A DNA stretch of 63,774 nt, filler included, from Octopus bimaculoides (taxonomy: Eukaryota), in the NCBI RefSeq assembly GCF_001194135.2. It is 6 parts of 6 records of this genome, joined end to end, with 100 filler letters (N's around TTAATTAATTAA, not from the genome) between each part and the next. Parts side by side here need not be neighbours in the genome. Positions count along the whole stretch, not along the records: positions 1 to 29,006 come from NC_068984.1; positions 29,107 to 34,819 come from NC_068981.1; 4 more parts are not named here. The stretch is one strand, 5' to 3'. Below the pieces are notes generated by a model that saw only the letters and a list, made by a program, of their open reading frames with translations, was not told the origin of the DNA and did not search any database. Positions 26,997 through 58,643 of this stretch are shown here, piece by piece. The position numbers and the translations under genes are program-made. Position 1 is the stretch's first letter. Each line of letters opens with the position of its first letter.

Positions 26997-27284
26997 GGAT
27001 AAACGGCAAAATCGAAAAAATTTTGGTTTACAGCAATTTATGAAAACTGCGATGAAGACCAGGCACTGATTTTGCTAATTTGCATATCAGTATATCCATT
27101 GGCATCATAGAAAAATTAACTAATGTGCTAAGGCAGCATGACTGTGGATAAATAATAAATACGTTGAAAAACGTACATCTCTCACTTCTTTCTATCATCG
27201 GATTGCGGCCGTGTTGGGGCATTGTCTTCAACTTTGGTCAAACAAATCAACAACAGAAACAGGAAGGAAGAGTGATAGAAAGTT

Positions 27285-27553
27285 CATTATTTAAATTATT
27301 TATATTTGACAGATATTTGTCCTCATCTATTTTGTTGTTAACACAATATTTCGGCTGATATACCCCCCAGCCTTCATCAGGTATCTCGGGGAAATTTCGA
27401 ACCTGGGTCCTCATTCCTAAGGTATTTTTCGGTGCTATTATTATTATTATCATTATTCAGGTCACTGCTTGCAATCGAACTCGGAATTTTGGAGTTAGTA
27501 GCCCGCGCTCTTAACCACATGTACATAATTCCTCATCTCTTAAGTATGGAACT
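27285..27553 (-). mobile_element. Family D: tRNA-headed SINE with hammerhead motif and inverted terminal tail; 7-bp TSD GAAAGTT
   Basis: Minus strand: inverted tail piece (27521-27553), head TGTGGTTAAGAGCGCGGGCTACTAACTCCAAAATTCCGAGTTCGATTGC, (AAT)n, linker, HHR, tail. Second copy at 29818-30212. Confidence 0.85.
27340..27385 (-). ncRNA. Minimal type I hammerhead ribozyme motif (core intact)
   Basis: GATAC-CTGATGA-A-GGCTG-gggggtatat-CAGCC-GAAA-TA-TT-GTGTT. Conserved CUGAUGA/GAAA core, 5-bp stem II, palindromic AATATT stem III, stem I ATAC/GTGT. Activity not shown. Confidence 0.7.
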
Positions 27554-28525
27554 GAAAGTTTTTGTGAAAGAATACAACAGAGTGCGCCACCACCCCTTGC
27601 CGGAGACTCGTGGAGATTTAGGTGTTTTCGCTCAATAAACATTCAAAACGCCAGGCCTGGGAATCGAAACCGCGATCCTATGACAGCGAGTCCGCTGCCC
27701 TAACCGCTGGGCCATTGCGCCTCCACAAACTGCGATATATGTATTCTTTGTATACAAATTTACTTACGGCTTTTTTATCTACACTGTTATTAAGACGCAT
27801 TTGCTTCATGCATTAAGATACCTAGGGTTTGTATGTGCTTTAACTGACTTTTTGTAAGTGTTAGTTATATCAGTAGGGTTGGATTTGTTATTGTGTTCTA
27901 TAGCTTCCTCTGTTGAGAATCTGTCTATAGATGGTGTCTTTTTTGTAAAATCATTATCTCATAAAGGTCTTTATTAATAACATTCTGAAGATGTATGCAC
28001 AAATATTTTATATCTAGTATTATAATCAATATGCCAGTACTTGTATATGGATGTGTTGCTGGATTTGGGTACATGGATCTGCTATAAGAGGCCTTCATTG
28101 TTTTCTTCAAATCTTGCATAAATCCGAACGGCTCCACTAAAACACTTATTAACACAGGGATAAGTAGAAATTGATAAAGGATATTGGAATGCATGCTTTT
28201 AGAATAAGGAGACATTACACAATATTACAATGCAGACGACGAAGAAATCCTCGGTAAAAAACTTAGAGCTCCTTATAGTAATGTCATCGTATATGATAGT
28301 ATTATAGAATTTTCTCGCTTTTTTTTTTTGCTTTCGTTAATACACCCGAAATCTCTCTTTCTCGCTCTCTCCCACTCTCTCTCTCTCTCTCTCACTCGCT
28401 CGCGCGCTCTCTCTGTCTCTGTCTCTCTCTCTCTCTCTCTCACAGAAACACACACACAAACAGAAATACACATATATGTAGGTAGATAAACAAAGTAAAT
28501 AGGTGTACAGTTATTTAAATAGACG

Positions 28526-28585
<60 letters not shown>

Positions 28586-28689
28586 CATTTCTTTTATTAG
28601 CCACACAGTGTGTTGGAAATATTGGTTGTTGGTTCGTTGTGTGCTTGTTACTGCCGCTGTTTCTATCTTGTAATTAAGAGGGCGTTAAC

Positions 28690-29006
28690 AGGAGCCATCG
28701 TTAACAACCGCTGGTGGTTTGCCGTGAAAATGGCAATCAAATCGGAATCTATTAGGTTTAGTAAAGAACTAGCGATAGATCGAAATAGAGTAGAGGGAGA
28801 CTTAGTTAAGAAACTAGAAGAGGCACTTACAACTGGCAGCGCAACCAACGTTTTGGCTGCGAGGATGGCCCTCGACCAACACCTCAACGCCAAACACGAA
28901 GGTTGCGTCGTCAGAGCTAAAATACGTGCCTTAAGGAACGAAGGGATCGAAGCTGCGCGAGAAGCCCGGGTGGCGGAGGCGCAACGCGGTAACAGAGCCA
29001 CCATTC
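28690..29006 (+). mobile_element. L1/Tx1-clade LINE ORF2 fragment (endonuclease-RT linker), open into a gap
   Basis: NNRWWFAVKMAIKSESIRFSK..EGDLVKKLEE..HEGCVVRAKIRALRNEG fits the WW..K..IK...I.(Y/F)SK ... G..IRSR linker pattern of L1/Tx1 ORF2. Confidence 0.7.
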
Positions 29007-29106
29007 NNNNNNNNNNNNNNNNNNNNNNNNNNNNNNNNNNNNNNNNNNNNTTAATTAATTAANNNNNNNNNNNNNNNNNNNNNNNNNNNNNNNNNNNNNN
29101 NNNNNN
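29007..29106. other. Artificial 100-bp scaffold linker (44 N + TTAATTAATTAA + 44 N); also at 34820-34919, 57957-58056, 60222-60321 and 62188-62287
   Basis: The same 12-mer with stop codons in all six frames sits at 29051, 34864, 58001, 60266 and 62232, centred in an N run. Confidence 0.95.
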
Positions 29107-29148
29107 AAAAGGCTTCACACAGAGACACAACTTCAGATTTATATATTA

Positions 29149-29152
<4 letters not shown>
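29107..29152 (-). mobile_element. Possible Helitron/Helentron-type 5' terminus
   Basis: Reverse complement ATCTTAATATATAAATCTGAAGTTGTGTCTCTGTGTG resembles the A|TCTATATATATAAA..TGTGTGTCTG starts of non-autonomous rolling-circle elements; cut by a gap. Confidence 0.35.
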
Positions 29153-29185
<33 letters not shown>

Positions 29186-29545
29186 CTTATAATGGGAACT
29201 TTTGGATGGAAATTTGTAAATCCTTTAATGCATTGCTGCATATGTTTCCACAAAGCACATTTTTTTTTGCTGCATTCCCCATCCATAGGACATTATAAAT
29301 AGGATTTGCAATATCCATCCATTTTATGGGGAGCCATTATTATATGTATTCATTTCTTGAGGCAAAAATTGCATTAGTATTCTGGTTACATTGACCGTTT
29401 TGCTGAGGGATGTTTACCAATTTACACCAATCAGAAGGTTCTGTGAAGTTAATGCTTGTGTGTGTGTATGTATATATATGTGTGATTTTTTTATTGCCCA
29501 GAAGGGGCCAACACAGAGGGGACAATACAACATTGTTTATATATG

Positions 29546-29588
<43 letters not shown>

Positions 29589-29817
29589 ATGCGTGCATGT
29601 GCATGTGTATGTGTGTGTGTGTATTTACATATTATATACATGCATATAAATATATATTTGTATGTATGTAAATATGTACATTCTTAAATCTGTTTATATA
29701 AACTCCAATTATGGTCTATTTCATGAAGGTAACTACATGGTAACAAAAAGCAGACTCAATTCATACAGCTGGATATATACAACTACTACCCTTGCAATAG
29801 TTGTGAACAAAGCACTT

Positions 29818-30212
29818 CTCCAGTTCTATATTTAAGAGATGAGGAATTATGTACATTATTTACATTATTTATATTTGATGGATATTTGTCCTCATCTTGT
29901 GTGTTGTTAACACAATGTTTTGGCTGATACACCCTCCAGCCTTCATCAGGTGTCCCCAAGACACCCGATGAAGGAGTCCCCAAGGTATATGATGTAGTGG
30001 TTAAGAGCGCGGCTACTAACCCCAAGATTTCGAGTTCAATTTCAGGCAGTGACCTTAATAATAATAATAACATCATTAATACCTTAGGAATGAGAACCCA
30101 GGTTCAAATTTTCCCCAAGACACCTGATGAAGGCTAGAGGGTATATCAGCCAAAACGTGTTAACAACAAACAAGATGAGGACAAATATCAGTCAATTATA
30201 AATAATGTAAAT
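29818..30212 (+). mobile_element. Family D SINE with a long inverted 5' copy; 9-bp TSD AAAGCACTT
   Basis: Antisense tail plus HHR (29821-29954), junction fragments, tRNA-like head (29991-30054), (AAT)n, sense HHR-like motif (30119-30161), tail. TSD at 29809-29817 and 30213-30221. Confidence 0.85.
29909..29954 (-). ncRNA. Degenerate hammerhead motif (G12 lost)
   Basis: GACAC-CTGATGA-A-GGCTG-gagggtgtat-CAGCC-AAAA-CATT-GTGTT. GAAA reads AAAA, consistent with CpG decay. The sense copy at 30119-30161 is also degenerate. Confidence 0.6.
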
Positions 30213-32621
30213 AAAGCACTTTATTTGCAAAAAGTAACTCTAACCTAACTAGAGAAGAAATAGACATAATATCAGCAGTTTGTAGCACCATAACAGAATA
30301 AAGGAGGCAAACTTTGGACTCGAATGGATATGGAAGAATATTTTTGACTTAACTATGGAGTCAAGTGATTCAACACAAGTAATGAATATAATAATAGGAA
30401 TACATTTACTATCCCAGATACAATCTTGGTTCCCAAATTTAGGGGTGGTGGGATTACATAGAGATGACTCACTATTTGTACTAAGAAGTAGGAGAGGTGT
30501 AAGAAGTAGGAGTGGAGAAGTGAAGAAAAAACTTTTTAAATTCCTTAAAAATTTTGGTCTAGAAATAGCAATTGACAAAATCATAGAGTAGTAAACTTCC
30601 TAGACATGAAACTTAACCTCAATGAAGAGAAATTCAAGGCTTTCCATAAACAAAATGAAAACTTGAAATATGTGAGTAGTGGATCTAATCATCGAGAGCC
30701 TGTGCCGATAAACATCCCAAAAAGTATCTATCAATATCCAAACTCCCCGCTGATGGAGGGATGTTCAAAGAACACACCAAATATTATAACTCTGTATTAG
30801 CTAGGGCTGGATATAAGGATTAAATAAAATATGTATGAAATAGTGTACCACTACATCAGTATCCCATCTGAGATAAAAATATAAGAGGATGTGTTAGAAA
30901 TAATCCAGGAATAAAGAACCCCTAAAAAAACAATGAACAAGATAGAGACTGAAATAGGAAAATACAAAGACAACACTAAGGAAAGTGGGAGTCAAACAGG
31001 ATGCATAAAGCAGTATGGAAAGGAAAAATAGAAGGGACAGATAAATGCAAATAGAAAGAGCAGCCATGTAGTATTAATAGAGACAGAACTAATATATAAT
31101 AACAAACCATATAGATACATTAAAAGAAATGGGAAAATATTAAATAATGAAATTATCTAGTTTAACCCAATCTTCGGATTGCAAATAAAATGTAAGGCTG
31201 GACAGCAATTCTTCTTTGCACTGGACAGGCATTTTCCTAGATTGAGTAAATATTGCAAAATCTTTAATAGGCATATTGTGAAATTAGCATTTGCAACATC
31301 TCATAACCTAGAATATAATACACATAAATTAAATAACAAAAATCTTAATAAAATAAAACTAGAACATGGAAATGGACAAATGGTAGATCAAAATAGAATA
31401 ATCAGTGAGAGAATGGATAAGAAGTTGAATAATAAATATTCTATAAAAACAGACTTGAGTCCAAATAATCATATATGCTTAACAGCGAAGTCCAAACCCA
31501 GGATAACTGAGACCATAATAGTAGAAGAAAGACAAAAAGTAAATTGTAATAATAAATCTGATAGCAACCAAAACACGCAGTTAAACACCAACGCAGTTAA
31601 ACACCAATCTGCACAACATAAGTGAAGATGTGGAACATGAAAACAACAAAGCCAGAAACAACACAACAATATATAACTGTAGAGGAGAAACGGATGCAAT
31701 TTTGGAAACAACTGCTTGAGGAGGAGTGTGATTAATAAATGTGAAGTGAAGGAAGGTCCACTAAAATATGTGTACATCAGTGGAACATTGGACATGATGA
31801 AAATCCATCTGATAAACCATCTTCTATCATTTTCTGATGAAAACAAAGTCACTGCACATCTTTACCTAACCTAAAACAGAAATGGAGTGGAACACACAAC
31901 TAAGTGGTCTATACTAAGAAATACCAAACCATATGATGTAACATCACTGGTCTGCAACCTATGTCTGGAGTAAATTCTGGAGACTATTATCTCCAAGAAA
32001 TGCATAATTAACAGACATAAAAGAAAAAAAAATCCTTTGCCAGACTGGAACAAAGCATTATAACACAAATAAACACTAACCATTATTTGCGTCAAACCAA
32101 ACAATAGACGGACCTCCTAAATGAAGTAAACAAAAAAAGAGCTTATATACAGCATAGGAAATTATAAAGAAATTTTTGCATAACAGAGCGTAAATATCAA
32201 GGACCCTAGCATAAACCACATGCATAATATTGTGTTATTTATTGTTATATAATGAACATACAAAGAAAATAATACTAGATGGAATATATTGGCTGTACAG
32301 TAAAATAAGACTATCATTGAATGTATAGTACCATCACTAACAAATAACACACCCATTTAAGGAACAACATTTGACAGAACAGTAGGGGACCATGTGAAAT
32401 ACTTAATGATACCAAGGTAATCCCATTTCCTGTCTTGACTGGCACTTGAGCAGAAATCACAAACTGATAAACAAAAAGTTGCTCCCTTCCCCTTATGGTT
32501 TGTAAAATCATTAATGTGGCACCCTGCTAAGGTTGGTTAAATCAAACACTCAGTGCCCCCACATCACAGTGCATATACACTGAAATCAAAACAGGATATG
32601 TATATCAAAAAAGGATATGTA

Positions 32622-33760
32622 TATCAGGGTGTTTCAAAAGTAATTGCATTTTACCAGAAAGGATATAAAAACGAATGTAAACTGTTTATCTGAATAGTTT
32701 TCATCAAGAATGTAATCACCATCACTTTCAATGACTGCAGTCAACAGGAAAGTAACTTTTTTGTGCCATGTACAAAGAAACTTACTTCTTTTTTTGAAAA
32801 AAGTCTGAAAGACTGTTTTCAACTTCCTTTGTTTCTGAATATTTTGTCTGTTATAAAATGTTCTAGTGATCAGAACAGATAGAAATCCGTAGGTGCTAAG
32901 TCAAGTGAGTATGGAGGATGTGGAAGAACTTCCCATCCTAATGATCTTATTTTTTCTTGGGTTTGTTTTGAAGAGTGTAGCTGTGCATTGTCATGCTGGA
33001 GAATAACACCTTTTCTGTTTGCCAGAGCTGGCCACTTACGGTGTAATTTTTTAAGTACACAATCAAGTTGTTGGCAATAGCCATCTGCATTGGTGGTCCT
33101 TCCATGTTTCAGTAGCTCATAATGGATGATACCTTTCATATTCCACCAAACACAGTGTAAGGATTTTTGTGGATGGAATTCTGGTTTTGATGTTGGCACT
33201 GGCATCTCATTGCATGATAACTGTTGTCCTTTTCATTTTCTGTTGTGATGCAAAACCCATTTTTCATCACCTGTAATAATGCACTGCAGAAATGACAAGT
33301 TAATTTTGATTATAAGACTGCTGTAGATGGTGGACTGTTGTTTTCGGTTCTCAGGCGTAAGCTCATGTGGAACCCAAGTTCCCTCTTTGCATGTTTTCCC
33401 AATTTGCTTGAAATGTTCATAGATAGTTGAAGATGACACATTAAACTTTGTGCCAAATCTCTGGTGCTTTGACATGGACCCGATACAGTAGTTTCATTTA
33501 AAAGGTCATCATTCAGAGTGGGTCATCTTCTAGAGTGAGGCTTGTTATATATATCACAATTACCATCTTTAAACCTTTTAAACCACAGCTGACATGTATG
33601 AGCTTTCACTGCATCTGGATACATTTCATAAAGGATTTTCATTGCTTCTGTAGTGGTACTTTTCTTTTGAAATTCATATAGTAAGCAATAGCAAATATGT
33701 TGTCTCATAAAGTTCTTATCCTCTATGGGGTTAATTACCGAAATAACTATGAATGACACA
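32622..33760 (-). pseudogene. Decayed mariner (Tc1/mariner, DD34D type) transposase with one recognisable TIR
   Basis: Three frameshifted ORFs: LLYEF..EA..WFKRFKDG (HTH), WVPHEL..ITGDEKW, CVWWNMKG..LQHDNA..H..LPHPPYSLDLAPTDFYLF. TIR-like TATCAGGGTGTTTCAAAAGTAATTGC at 32622-32647; the other TIR was not found. Confidence 0.92.
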
Positions 33761-34271
33761 CTACCAGATAGAAGAGGTGATATACTATTTCTAGACAGCT
33801 CCTACCCATTCGACCTTGGCTCTGATGTGATTGGTTGATTCATATTTCATGTTACTGGTTCTGGAAATCCGCATGTTTTTCTACTAGCACCCTGTGAATT
33901 TTGTAAGAAAATCATGTGAGCTTTCAAAACCCATACCGTGAAAGATTAATTTAATTTATTTCAGTTTATTTTCTCTTCTCATACAGTATGATTAAATCAT
34001 TATATAATACAATAGAAACTAGTAGTATATTCAGATAAAAAATGTAAACATTTTCTTTTTGTTAATGATAACACTCTCAAATCACTTTTGCTTTTGTTTA
34101 TTTAGTATGAATTTGTTCATAGGAAACCTCTCAATCTTTTCAATATATATATGTATAGATGTGTATGTGTGTATAGTTATATATATATACATATATATAT
34201 ATATACACACACACACACATGTATATATATATATATACATATACGTACAGATAATTACATACTATACAAAT

Positions 34272-34819
34272 AATTACAGAGGCATCATGCTGTTAGATCA
34301 GGTTATGAAAGTTATGGAGAGGGTCATAGCCCAACTAATTAGGGAGCGAATCAATTTAGATGAAATGCAGTTTGGGTTCGTGCCAGGTAAAAGCACCACT
34401 GATGCCATATTTCTAGTAAGACAGCTGCAGGAGAAATACCTAGCCAAGGATAAACCTTTGTACCAGGCTTTCGTTGACATGGAGAAAGCCTTTGACAGGG
34501 TCCCCCTTTCCCTTATCTGGTGGTCAATGAGGAAACTTGGGATAGAAGAATGGTCAGTGAGAGCTGTGCAAGCCATGTACAGAGATGCTGCCAGTAAGGT
34601 GAGAGTTGGAAATGAGTACAGTAATGAATTCCGGGTAGAGGTAGGGGTCCACCAAGGTTCCGTCCTCAGCCCCCTCCTATTTATCATAGTCCTCCAGGTG
34701 ATCATAGAGGAATTCAAGACAGGTTGCCCCTGGGAGCTCCTCTATGCTGATGACCTTGCACTAATTGCGGAGTCACTATCAGAACTAGAGAAGTTTCAGG
34801 TGTGGAAGCAAGGACTAGA
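34272..34819 (+). mobile_element. RTE-clade LINE reverse transcriptase fragment, no stops up to the gap
   Basis: NYRGIMLL..QFGFVPGKSTTDAIF..FVDMEKAFDRVP..GVHQGSVLSPLLF..LLYADDLAL; fused 5' to an (AT/AC)n tract. Confidence 0.95.
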
Positions 34820-37513
34820 NNNNNNNNNNNNNNNNNNNNNNNNNNNNNNNNNNNNNNNNNNNNTTAATTAATTAANNNNNNNNNNNNNNNNNNNNNNNNN
34901 NNNNNNNNNNNNNNNNNNNTATATATATATATATATATATTCAGGGAGGTAGAGGGGGTGAAATAGTGAAAGTGAGCGTGATAAATACTTCTGTACTAGG
35001 TCTGGAATTATTTCCAGTAGAACAGAGTGGAGGAACATCAAATGATGTATCTAGCTCCAGAATGAAAAGACAGAAATTAAGCCAACGTTGCATATTTATG
35101 CTGCAACTTTCTATAATTGAACGCATGCTTTTGACGATTATATAAACTGATATATTCTGATGTCACAAGTAAGTTTAGCAGAAAGGAGATGACTTGGAGC
35201 AAATTAATTTAAATATTGTTGTCGTTGTTACACACTGAATATTCACTATCAATTATTTCTCCTGCATATGTTATGCTAAAATGTAATCTGTTGGAGCAAC
35301 ATTTCTTTTCTTCCTAGGTGTCACAACGTTGTTTAAAATTCTAATGGTTTAACAATTGCATATGGCATTTTAATTTGCTGCCTTATAAACAGTATTAGAA
35401 TTGAGAAACATAATGCGGTTGCTGTACATTGTAGCATTATACGTGTGTTAGTGAATATGTGTGAAAGACTGTATATGTATTTGAGTGCTGTTTGACAACA
35501 TACATATTAATATTCATATACATATACTTTTGCTTGTATATATATATATATAAAATAGTATTTGTGCTATGGCGCGGTCACTGATGAAAAATTCGCCTAG
35601 CAAATTATTTTATTTGCTAAAAAAATTTAAAAGCCTAGGTCTGGCCGGAATAAAAATAACTAACAGGGTAAAAGTTTTATTTTTCATTCCTTTTGAAGAT
35701 TGCTCTTAAACGTTGTTTTGGTCGTTTTGGCTACTTCTAGCGTGTAAAAACTGCCCGTTGAAGGCAGTTTCCTCTTGTGTACACTATTTTATATTGAGAA
35801 CATGTTGTCTATTGACTTTTTATACATGCTAGGCCACTGGTAGTGAAATTTCTAAAATAATCACTAGCCTATATTATATATATATAAATGTACATACATA
35901 TTTTTATATGCGTATANNNNNNNNNNNNNNNNNNNNNNNNNNNNNNNNNNNNNNNNNNNNNNNNNNNNNNNNNNNNNNNNNNNNNNNNNNNNNNNNNNNN
36001 NNNNNNNNNNNNNNNNNNNNNNNNNNNNNNNNNNNNNNNNNNNNNNNNNNNNNNNNNNNNNNNNNNNNNNNNNNNNNNNNNNNNNNNNNNNNNNNNNNNN
36101 NNNNNNNNNNNNNNNNNNNNNNNNNNNNNNNNNNNNNNNNNNNNNNNNNNNNNNNNNNNNNNNNNNNNNNNNNNNNNNNNNNNNNNAATTATAATAAATG
36201 TGTTGTTTAAATTTCACTCCTTTATTGGCATTCAACTGGATAGTTAACCAAAAAACTATCTACTCTACTGCTTGGTTAATTTGTTGTTTAAACAATCAAT
36301 CAGTTTTTTTTTTATGTCAAAGTCCTTTGGTCCCTATTCGCGCCCATTCAATGTCATACCTCTTTCTTCCATGTCTGCTCCGATATTGACGCGGACTATG
36401 AGAGGCTTCAATTATGATGCTAAGAACAATTAACTATCACGATCAGTGGAATATAGAAGTGAATTCACGTGGGTGACAATGGCAGAACCCACAATTATAG
36501 TAGAATAATTGGTTACCTATGATTGAGCATTAAAATAGAAGTATTGCCACGACTGAAGGCAGAGGGCACGATACACGCATGACAAACTTGGAAACAGAAT
36601 AGGAAGCTAAAAGCTTCAGAGACTACAAAAAATTTTAGCAATTTATGCAAAATTTCTGAATCCAACTACTTAGTTCCAAGTAAAACATATATATAACTTA
36701 TTATCTTCTTAGTCGTGAAAAGAAAAAAAAAATAAAGGATATTAATTTGAACAAAGATGAGAGTTATTATTCGCCTTGTTTAACCCATTAACAGCCAATT
36801 TTTTTTATTCTTATTTTTTGGATTTGCCAGATGTCTCAGGAGTTAAAATAACATATAGTATTTAAATGTTTTTTTCATATGTGAATTATTCTGGAAATTA
36901 TGCTAAATTTTTTGAAAAGTCACAAATGGGGATCGCTGAAAAAAATAGGTATATTCATTCTTTTGTATTCAATTGCAATAACAAGCATTTCACTATTTTT
37001 GAAACTCTAGAATCAAATGCGAATGTGTATGAAATAATGGATGATATAGATGATATAGATGCAAAAAAAAAAAAGAAGAAACAAAGCCGTTTTGAAAACA
37101 GTCGATATTTTTATAGATCAAAAATTGCGATTTATGACATAAAATTCCTTTGGAAGTAGCCAGAGCTAATACTGACAAATTTTAACTACTAAGCATTTTT
37201 AAACACACCTCTGCAAATGCAATGTACATAGGCAAGTCACTTTAAATACAATGAACAACCGGCAATGAGACTGTTTTTAGCAGATCACCAAATGGGGCTC
37301 ACGAGAGGTAAAGAAGGATACGAAATATTACTCAGAAAGCAGGATACTATAGTTGAGTAAAACTATGAGCTTATCTGAATATTAGGTTGCATTTCTTTAT
37401 CCGAACTCATTTCTCGTACTCGGAGATTTCACGTACTACACATTAAAACATCAGATTATCGAAACAGAAGTGCATTTAAATTGGATGCGTTACTGCTGTT
37501 AAATGAAATGGAA

Positions 37514-54945: not shown

Positions 54946-55185
54946 AGTAATTTCAACCAATCAATGAAGTCTATTGAAGTGAAAAAAAATTACTGCTGTG
55001 GTTTGTCAACAAGACGTTCTGGCGGTGTAAATTTACTTTGTTACTGTTAATTCTGTTATCTCAAATGTAAATATATCAGAAATAACAGTGACAAAATAAA
55101 TGTATACCGCCAGAACGTCTTGTTGACAAATCACAGCAGTAATTGTTTTCACCTCAATAGACGTCATTGATTGGTTGAAATTACT
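54946..55185. repeat. Inverted repeat, arms about 110 bp, 21-bp spacer
   Basis: 54946-55055 vs 55077-55185, about 10 differences by manual alignment. The right arm continues (55186-55320) into sequence related to the duplicated unit at 7765-8124. Confidence 0.9.
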
Positions 55186-55764
55186 GAAATACAACTTTAA
55201 CACAAATAACTTCGAAAATAAAGAATTTTCTTAAAAACAACAAGAGTAAATGATGTTTTAAATGCCACATTCTACCAGTATACGAAATTTGAAAGTGTTT
55301 AATTACAAACAAATATTTTTCTATGTGCCTGCCAAAAGGAAATGATCCCAGAATAGATGCATGCTAGTTCGAGCGTTTCTTTAATTTTCGAATGTACCGT
55401 AATTATTGCATCATATGAATGTGTATAATTTCCTGTTAGTTGATACATTTATAAGAATATGTTGAGAAAATATCTTCAGCGTTCTCTTCAGATATGATAT
55501 GTCTGTTTTATATATTCTTAAAGATAATAATGCTGTGTCTTGGGAGGCTCATTGCGTAATTAGTAACACACACATGTTTCATGATTACTATAGGCATAAC
55601 TACCCTCTCAAGTCACAAGATTTGTTTAAACACGTGATTTCTCACCAAGAATCTCACAAGTCAAATAAAAAAAAAATTCGAAGTAATGAAGATCAGTTTT
55701 CCTATTACATTTGCTTTGCAATAGATTTTTTCATATTTATCGGTTCTTTTTTTTTATTCTTTTA

Positions 55765-58139: not shown

Positions 58140-58643
58140 ATATAAAAAAAAAATTAACAGAATGAGATAAGAATCCAAATATGTGAAAGATTTAAGAACA
58201 TTTATAAATAGAAGGTCTTACAGCTGTTTCCGGGATATTTTATATATCCCTTCATCAGAAACGGTGTGAGAAAATGGTTAAGAAATAATTATCTTAGATG
58301 AGGTATGAAATAGATAGTGAAGTGGAAGAATGAAAACAGACGTGAGATATTCAGGGATATTGTATCTTCAGTTCCATTACTTAGGTAGAATGGTATACAC
58401 TTAAGATTCTTGTATCTTGTGAGTAAGTTCCAATAGTATTTAAAATATCATTTGAAATAGTATTTATAATATTTAAAATAGTATTTATAATACTTAAATA
58501 CTATTGGAACTTACTCACAAGATACAAGAATCTTAAGTGTATACCATTCTGCCTAAATAATAGAGTTGAAGATACAATATCCCTGCATATCTCACATCTG
58601 TTTTCATTCCTCACTTCACTATCTATTTCATATTTTATCTAGA
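58140..58643 (-). mobile_element. Penelope-like terminal fragment with a hammerhead motif and an inverted duplicate (family G)
   Basis: Inverted arms 58292-58443 and 58494-58643 (right arm cut by a gap); HHR and T-rich tail lie beyond the left arm on the minus strand. Confidence 0.65.
58215..58262 (-). ncRNA. Minimal type I hammerhead ribozyme motif
   Basis: GTTT-CTGATGA-A-GGGATAT-ataaa-ATATCCC-G-GAAA-CAGCTG-TA-AGAC. Intact core, 7-bp stem II, palindromic ACAGCTGT stem III, GUA triplet, 4-bp stem I; one extra nucleotide on each side of stem II. Confidence 0.7.

Follow-up and report, generated by a model that had tools for sequence, protein, structure and literature searches.

Which enzymes move a short repeat that begins like a tRNA and carries a hammerhead ribozyme towards its other end? 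The question is raised by two insertions in a 63,774-nt stretch of the Octopus bimaculoides genome (assembly GCF_001194135.2), the whole of which we refer to as the window. It consists of 6 parts joined with N filler; positions 1-29,006 come from NC_068984.1 and positions 29,107-34,819 from NC_068981.1. We use the name family D for the repeat, whose copies lie at 27285-27554 on the minus strand (copy 1) and at 29818-30212 on the plus strand (copy 2). A preliminary description of these copies took them for a short interspersed element (SINE) that is self-cleaving and inserts like a Penelope-like element (PLE).

Our answer, to which we give a probability of about 0.8, is that family D is a high-copy, non-coding octopus retroposon in which a tRNA-derived head is combined with the hammerhead end of a PLE, and whose RNA polymerase III (Pol III) transcript would be copied in trans by the reverse transcriptase (RT) and endonuclease of a PLE. 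The element is ~300 bp long, only spurious short open reading frames (ORFs) were found in it, and thousands of contigs match it across five DNA-type sequencing runs. Those runs, together with two raw, unstranded RNA runs (X23 and X24), provide the family-wide evidence, in the form of reads and contigs from four of the six organism codes listed; junction counts are given for the best-supported junctions only.

The tail, the inverted arms and the target site

The two copies have unrelated flanks, a body identity of 83.6% across 232 columns, and one common order of modules: tRNA-like head, (AAT)n, linker, hammerhead and 3′ body. The preliminary view of two independent insertions with a single layout, including the (AAT)n spacer and the linker, is in that respect right; what it left out is that copy 2 also contains an inverted arm and a rearranged junction. 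Copy 1 proper (27285-27518, minus strand) consists of a 5′-truncated head, the (AAT)n spacer (27436-27457), the linker, the hammerhead and the 3′ body, and it stops where a tail would start. Copy 2 is made of an inverted, 5′-truncated arm (29821-29954, minus strand) in which the hammerhead, the 3′ body and the tail follow one another in their natural order; of a junction (29953-29989) with a short forward piece of the 5′ part of the hammerhead and then an inverted piece of linker, likely the result of template switches; and of a forward arm (29990-30212, plus strand) with head, (AAT)n, linker, a dead hammerhead and a tail-less 3′ body. Each insertion is bounded by a target site duplication (TSD) of the length first proposed, 7 and 9 bp: GAAAGTT for copy 1 (27278-27284 on the left and 27554-27560 on the right, its first base shared with the element end; chance ~0.009) and AAAGCACTT for copy 2 (29809-29817 and 30213-30221; chance ~0.002), where chance refers to finding an equally long repeat across two boundaries if 4 bases of slack are allowed.

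How does the element end? The 3′ end had been described just as an AT-rich tail, and this misses a fixed extension. The same 36-bp block opens both insertions, at 27519-27554 (plus strand) and at 29821-29856, 94% alike, so placed that in both of them it stands inverted at the 5′ end. The block is the element's own 3′ extension, as seen both in the alignment of the copies and in the joints of reads and contigs. In X23, 53 + 38 + 197 + 140 = 428 reads at the four best junctions join 27285-27297 to 27519-27522 on opposite strands, and 59 + 37 + 157 + 86 = 339 reads do so at the four best junctions in X24; the DNA-type runs X1 and X2 add 1-4 contigs per junction at 27285, 27286, 27288 and 27296. 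The 3′ end of the body is found directly before 27519 in 945 (X23) and 876 (X24) reads, and 956 and 475 reads, respectively, run from 27295 into unrelated flank. Setting the tail-joined reads against the flank-joined ones, we see that some arms carry the tail and others end at the tail start. The 3′ ends of the family are thus fixed, lying either at the end of the body or after the 36-bp unique tail. A 9-bp stem (29889-29897 with 29837-29845) pairs tail and body across their boundary, and 7 of 500 shuffles fold as well. The reads also contain opposite-strand joints beyond those of the copies in the window.

This arrangement is familiar from another class of element. In the available part of PMC8557442, insertions of endonuclease-bearing PLEs are described as an inverted 5′-truncated copy with a one-sided tail of 30-40 bp, and the available part of PMC3846280 reports rotifer PLEs with TSDs of 8-10 bp and palindromes at the junctions. 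For the anole element Poseidon in vitro, two internal RT start sites within a stem-loop were found to give rise to the tail; cutting and extension took place on both target strands, and cleavage by the ribozyme was unnecessary and required protein (PMC11167929). Family D has a minimal hammerhead, a one-sided tail of 36 bp, TSDs of 7 and 9 bp and, in copy 2, an inverted 5′-truncated arm (copy 1 has the tail only). Judged by sequence, the one-sided tail, inverted arm, minimal hammerhead and TSD together look like the footprint of endonuclease-bearing PLEs, and for that reason family D likely uses PLE enzymes and not those of long interspersed elements (LINEs). The early suggestion that it inserts like a Penelope element is in this way supported, on stronger grounds than those first offered for it, and the hallmarks in question, inverted 36-bp tail and inverted arm, are found family-wide.

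Several observations concern the surroundings and the RNA of these copies. Position 27303 and its equivalents in both arms of copy 2 all share a letter found in ~3-8% of the family reads or contig depth, which may reflect conversion, local hopping or a shared minor sub-family. On the left of copy 1, 35 bases of the flank (27250-27284) match another very abundant repeat (~4400 reads in X23), and a different tRNA-headed repeat, recognised by eye, adjoins copy 1 at 27572-27730 (minus strand). At 27370-27430 and 30080-30150, A>G and T>C changes are commoner in the RNA reads of X23 and X24 than in DNA contigs (15% vs. ~0.1% at 30148), in a comparison of unmatched RNA and DNA where contig depths under-count rare variants; and a loose end of 336 reads before 30110 is linker with about seven A>G changes. 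This excess looks like A-to-I editing of the inverted arms; copies in edited form may be present in the DNA, too.

The tRNA-like head and its join to the body

Does the head belong to the body, or have the two met by chance in this window? On the forward arm of copy 2, the X23 depth per strand is ~530 in the head, 350-490 in the (AAT)n, ~1000-1140 in the linker and ~1600 in the hammerhead. In front of the linker, 492 reads have the (AAT)n as their loose end and 266 have the end of the head. Three further organisms, C, D and E, have contigs (records 9, 17 and 1) that bridge the head to the linker or to the hammerhead. Head and body are joined family-wide, in four organisms. Had head and ribozyme-bearing tail rarely occurred together, the preliminary description would have had to give way to a chance chimera; their join in the reads and in the contigs of three further organisms speaks against one. 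The depth gradient fits 5′ truncation.

The two boxes that the preliminary description placed in the head hold up only in part in the window itself. The B box is found (27473-27480 in copy 1; 30034-30041 in the forward arm of copy 2), but both heads are 5′-truncated. The head of copy 1 (27458-27518, minus strand) has lost the first half of its A box and consists of the second half, an anticodon-arm-like part and the B box, and the A box of the copy 2 forward arm (29990-30000, plus strand) is decayed. In the reads, both boxes are perfect again, the A box as TGGCGTAGTGG. In all four runs, the family starts seven bases ahead of the A box, at the point where one expects a tRNA to start. Beyond the head, 639 (X23) and 446 (X24) RNA reads enter its mirror image, in a head-to-head palindrome.

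A degenerate pattern of the head matched 13 of 13 tRNA-Ile(AAU) genes in viral contigs. In alignment, the head reaches z-scores of 5-8 to tRNA-Ile(AAU), against a maximum of 5.5 for the Gly and Gln tRNAs, within a biased set that has one Gln tRNA. ARAGORN reports no tRNA in the window, exact-pattern scans found no copy of family D in viral or metagenome contigs, and a distant blastn search of the head against phages gave chance matches only. We regard a tRNA origin of the head as well supported, and its Ile isotype as tentative, because the free positions of the pattern were picked with tRNA-Ile in mind. It is only the A and B boxes that point to transcription by Pol III. The run of four T that would act as a terminator occurs neither in copy 1 nor in the inverted arm.

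The hammerhead and the question of cleavage

The minimal type I hammerhead that had been assigned to both copies is intact in one of them. In copy 1 (27340-27385, minus strand), both the fold and a strict descriptor predict a ribozyme with a stem I of 5 bp, CUGAUGA at 27374-27380, an extra A, a stem II of 6 bp, GAAA, and a palindromic 2-nt insert, with the predicted cut between 27345 and 27344. The minimum-energy structure of this 49-nt stretch has the hammerhead shape, and the strict minimal-hammerhead descriptor, applied to the entire window, picks out copy 1 (27380, minus strand) as its single site; 100 shuffles give none. Copy 1 shows all the marks by which the available text of PMC4209133 characterises the minimal hammerheads of PLEs: an extra base between 9 and 10.1, G10.1-C11.1, a long stem II, a short stem I and a palindromic 15.2-16.2. 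Both arms of copy 2 are broken. The forward arm (CUGAUGA at 30124-30130) has G12 changed to A at 30152 and has lost 3 bases near 30156, at the cleavage site, and the inverted arm has the same G12 to A change, so that two of the three hammerheads in the window are dead and only the core of copy 1 is intact. The 3-base loss at the cut site (27345/30156) recurs in 392 of 3578 (X23) and 328 of 2749 (X24) RNA reads, and may represent either a ribozyme-dead variant or repeated slippage.

At the level of the family, the majority letters spell an intact minimal hammerhead core with a palindromic ACGU, among RNA reads as well as DNA contigs. N7, the one free position of the core, is variable in the DNA contigs (13-14% of depth is A in X13 and X5, and 37% is C in X11), with the A share in X13 and X5 possibly contributed by a sister family that we describe below. 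U4 varies at 0.3-1.5% in the DNA contigs; C3, G5, A6, G8 and A9 do not appear among the variants listed, for which the threshold was 8%. Decay of the CpG type affects G12 and the CG insert. Such conservation of the core suggests a constraint on the source copies, and stops short of proving one.

But does the ribozyme cut? The preliminary description took the element to be self-cleaving, and named Rfam hammerhead models, covariation of the stems and RNA 5′ ends at the predicted site as places where this should be visible. Cleavage is not supported yet on any of these grounds. Rfam gave neither a hammerhead nor a tRNA match among the best 150 of 229 matches in the window, nor in four sub-regions scanned as well, and the folding z-scores of single copies are not significant. 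Within family D no compensatory pair of changes is seen in the stems. Read starts and ends do not pile up in X23 and X24, unstranded data of a kind that cannot exclude cleavage, and the depth of copies does not change abruptly where the cut is predicted. To this should be added that, in the available text of PMC4209133, minimal hammerheads are inactive as monomers and cleave weakly as dimers. One candidate for covariation, a stem II pair that is U-A in family D and C-G in the sister family (read from protein letters), was discounted because CpG decay yields the same pattern.

Further hammerhead-like motifs, belonging to other families, occur on the minus strand at 58258, 40880 and 55479, and fail the strict descriptor. 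The first lies beside a palindrome centred at ~58468 (117 of 160 pairs), and that at 55479 is near a palindrome at 54962-55171.

Relatives, mechanism and rival explanations

A profile of one reading frame of the 3′ module matches 204 proteins, the best 150 of which do not exceed 238 aa and are short, spurious ORFs. The best named matches at the protein level are gene models of Octopus bimaculoides, and therefore we place the family in octopuses. One of these gene models, P0154, takes its first ~25 codons from family D, with its start at an AUG inside the hammerhead core, a case of exonisation or of mis-annotation. By a rough motif split of the best 150 of 204 proteins, 118 of 169 matched stretches belong to a sister family that has its hammerhead, 9-bp stem and tail letters in common with family D but differs in its upstream part; 13 of the 150 listed matches contain it in tandem units of ~129 nt (~43 codons). 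The block from hammerhead to tail is shared between the two families, which marks it as a shared cis module.

Who supplies the enzymes? We infer an autonomous PLE as partner. An element of that kind with a matching end, which the preliminary description had in view, was not found by protein searches, and these are weak for this purpose; none of the 17 proteins scanned for domains among the best 150 of 204 has a PLE domain. According to a supplement to PMC13282606, which leaves ribozymes unmentioned, 190 families of PLEs make up 6.83% of the O. vulgaris genome. The window itself contains a fragment of a reverse transcriptase (34233-34820, plus strand; Pfam RVT_1), one of a mariner-type transposase (32873-33232, minus strand; Transposase_1) and an ORF fragment that has no Pfam match (28601-29005, plus strand) and that we take to be LINE-like; none of the three resembles a PLE partner.

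Each half of family D has known counterparts. Like it, endonuclease-bearing PLEs (Penelope/Poseidon, Neptune, Nematis; Pen2a_Av, PAc) have a minimal hammerhead at the 3′ side, a one-sided tail of 30-40 bp, an inverted 5′-truncated arm, head-to-head junctions and a short TSD (PMC11167929 and, for the portions available, PMC8557442 and PMC3846280), and in both the tail ends ~120 nt past the start of stem II. Family D differs in having no RT-endonuclease ORF, in its length of ~300 bp, and in its upstream part, where a tRNA-derived head carrying Pol III boxes is followed by (AAT)n. The Schistosoma element Sm-alpha was rightly named as a precedent from the start: in it and in Sj-alpha, both dispersed and of high copy number, a tRNA-derived Pol III head is followed by a type I hammerhead (excerpts of PMC2770079, PMC6765202 and PMC8490949). 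As described in those excerpts, Sm-alpha has a canonical and demonstrably active hammerhead, is related to tRNA-Gln and is often in tandem, and no PLE tail, inverted arm or partner is mentioned there; family D is set apart from these descriptions by its PLE-type minimal hammerhead, its inverted arms and its tentatively Ile-like head, whose z-score is higher to Ile than to the single Gln tRNA of our biased set. Metazoan non-LTR retrozymes (LTR, long terminal repeat) are likewise short and non-coding with a type I hammerhead, and have been proposed to be non-autonomous derivatives of PLE pseudo-LTRs (pLTRs). They are defined by head-to-tail tandems and circular RNA, with no tRNA head in the text available (PMC7229834; bioRxiv 10.64898/2026.07.22.740005), whereas copies of family D are dispersed and have inverted arms. 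Non-autonomous Chlamys, in the available part of PMC8557442, is a further PLE derivative of this sort.

With tRNA-derived SINEs, family D shares a length below 700 bp, the absence of coding capacity, a tRNA head with A and B boxes, TSDs and a high copy number (PMC3531059, as available). SINEBase, in that same excerpt, has SINEs as LINE-dependent elements of <700 bp with simple-repeat tails, and the word Penelope does not appear in it. Family D is short, dispersed, repeated and non-coding with a Pol III-type head, and it has no simple-repeat 3′ tail of variable length; the protein searches gave no sign of a LINE partner or of a PLE one. It is SINE-like in its working without the simple tail of a SINE, and it has every structural feature of a non-autonomous PLE bar the partner. 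Both a tRNA head with a hammerhead and non-autonomous PLE derivatives are already known or proposed; the combination appears to be new in the open-licence literature, where we found no report of a tRNA-SINE mobilised by a PLE or bearing its footprint, or of family D (including in the accessible parts of PMC6962438, PMC10886601 and PMC4758252). Family D itself may already have a name. Octopus repeat libraries probably list it under 'unclassified SINE' or 'Penelope'. Three octopus SINEs were reportedly described by Ohshima and Okada in 1994, and family D may be one of them.

As to how the element is copied, we infer the polymerase, the enzyme and the order of steps as follows. Pol III would start at the internal A and B boxes and read through the body and the tail, since neither copy 1 nor the inverted arm contains four T in a row. 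The PLE protein would bind the 3′ module, in which the 9-bp stem brackets the boundary of body and tail, and would cut both target strands 7-9 bp apart. cDNA would then be primed from both target ends, with one start at the tail end and the other at the tail start, as in anole Poseidon in vitro, and the two cDNAs would join head to head. One side would then hold the tail and an inverted arm, whether short or long, and the other an arm that lacks the tail. Insertions could then form a series, with copy 1 (tail only) the shortest, copy 2 with its switching scars intermediate, and full head-to-head dimers the longest; only an arm holding both head and tail would be a new source. The template would likely be uncut RNA and the hammerhead would have been inherited with the PLE end, cutting, if at all, as a dimer or with the help of protein.

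Some of our results weigh against this account. About two thirds of the hammerhead depth comes without a head, and headless sub-families could explain it as well as truncation does. Reads of the head-to-head palindrome could partly be library fold-back; the DNA contigs reach ~4-5 letters past its centre. RNA reads lie equally on both strands, come from unstranded runs and do not accumulate at any start or end; host transcripts that read through the element may be their source. Searches for longer proteins with two frames of the 3′ module returned 0 matches and one 84-aa gene model, and are weak for this purpose. The lack of any compensatory change in stem I or stem II counts here too. The arms of copy 2 are 90.7% alike, which would fit their age and is no proof of a single template. 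Finally, the flanks (57-73% AT, vs. 64% for the window) are not enriched in AT.

Could the head then be a passenger? In this explanation family D is a non-autonomous PLE derivative that captured a tRNA-like sequence, is transcribed passively or by RNA polymerase II (from read-through or a pLTR promoter), and is functionally no SINE. It would account for RNA reads equal on both strands with no defined start, and for a sister family in which the same 3′ module sits under an upstream part not demonstrated to be tRNA-like; moreover, pLTRs alone mobilise unrelated DNA in cis (PMC3846280, in the part available). We consider it unlikely: the family starts seven bases before a perfect A box in four organisms, both boxes are intact in the majority letters, and a T4 terminator is absent from copy 1 and the inverted arm. 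Even further from our expectation is a retrozyme-type cycle, in which the hammerhead cuts tandem or paired transcripts and RNA circles serve as template, making family D a tRNA-headed retrozyme like Sm-alpha. Sm-alpha and the metazoan retrozymes offer a precedent (available text of PMC6765202 and PMC7229834), the majority-letter core is intact with only N7 variable, and the sister family has tandem units. Yet neither of the two insertions in the window is a direct tandem, and inverted arms place two ribozymes on opposite strands; no depth step or read-end pile-up marks the cut, which would in any case leave the 3′ module without its promoter, and on their own minimal hammerheads have almost no activity (PMC4209133, as available).

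To a LINE-dependent SINE with an incidental hammerhead-like motif and inverted pieces, or to a chance local chimera, we give hardly any credence. TSDs and 5′ truncation would also fit LINE-type priming, but a simple-repeat tail is absent, and the fixed 36-bp tail at one end only is inverted in both insertions and family-wide. The strict hammerhead occurs in 0 of 100 shuffles, and head and body are joined in four organisms. Copying of family D by PLE enzymes in trans remains our reading. A stronger form of it would make family D a true SINE class that parasitises PLEs and not LINEs: a Pol III head drives a PLE end module, priming occurs at both ends, copy number is very high across octopus species, the tail-bearing arms of dimers are the sources, and the hammerhead core is selected in the Pol III transcript. 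On that we are evenly divided.

What would it mean? The integration of PLEs, with its tail, its inverted arm and the role of its hammerhead, is still unexplained. Short and very abundant as it is, and with a defined 5′ end, family D makes the model of two start sites testable by counting junctions and, with an RNA of 300 nt, in vitro. If our reading is true, it would provide a natural minimal substrate of 300 nt with a fixed 5′ end, on which both PLE integration and the purpose of the PLE hammerhead could be studied. It would be, if true, a large source of double-stranded RNA for A-to-I editing in octopus. And a tRNA-headed family with a PLE footprint would, if true, add a third class of SINE helper, beside the LINEs and the helpers of LTR-dependent small-RNA elements.

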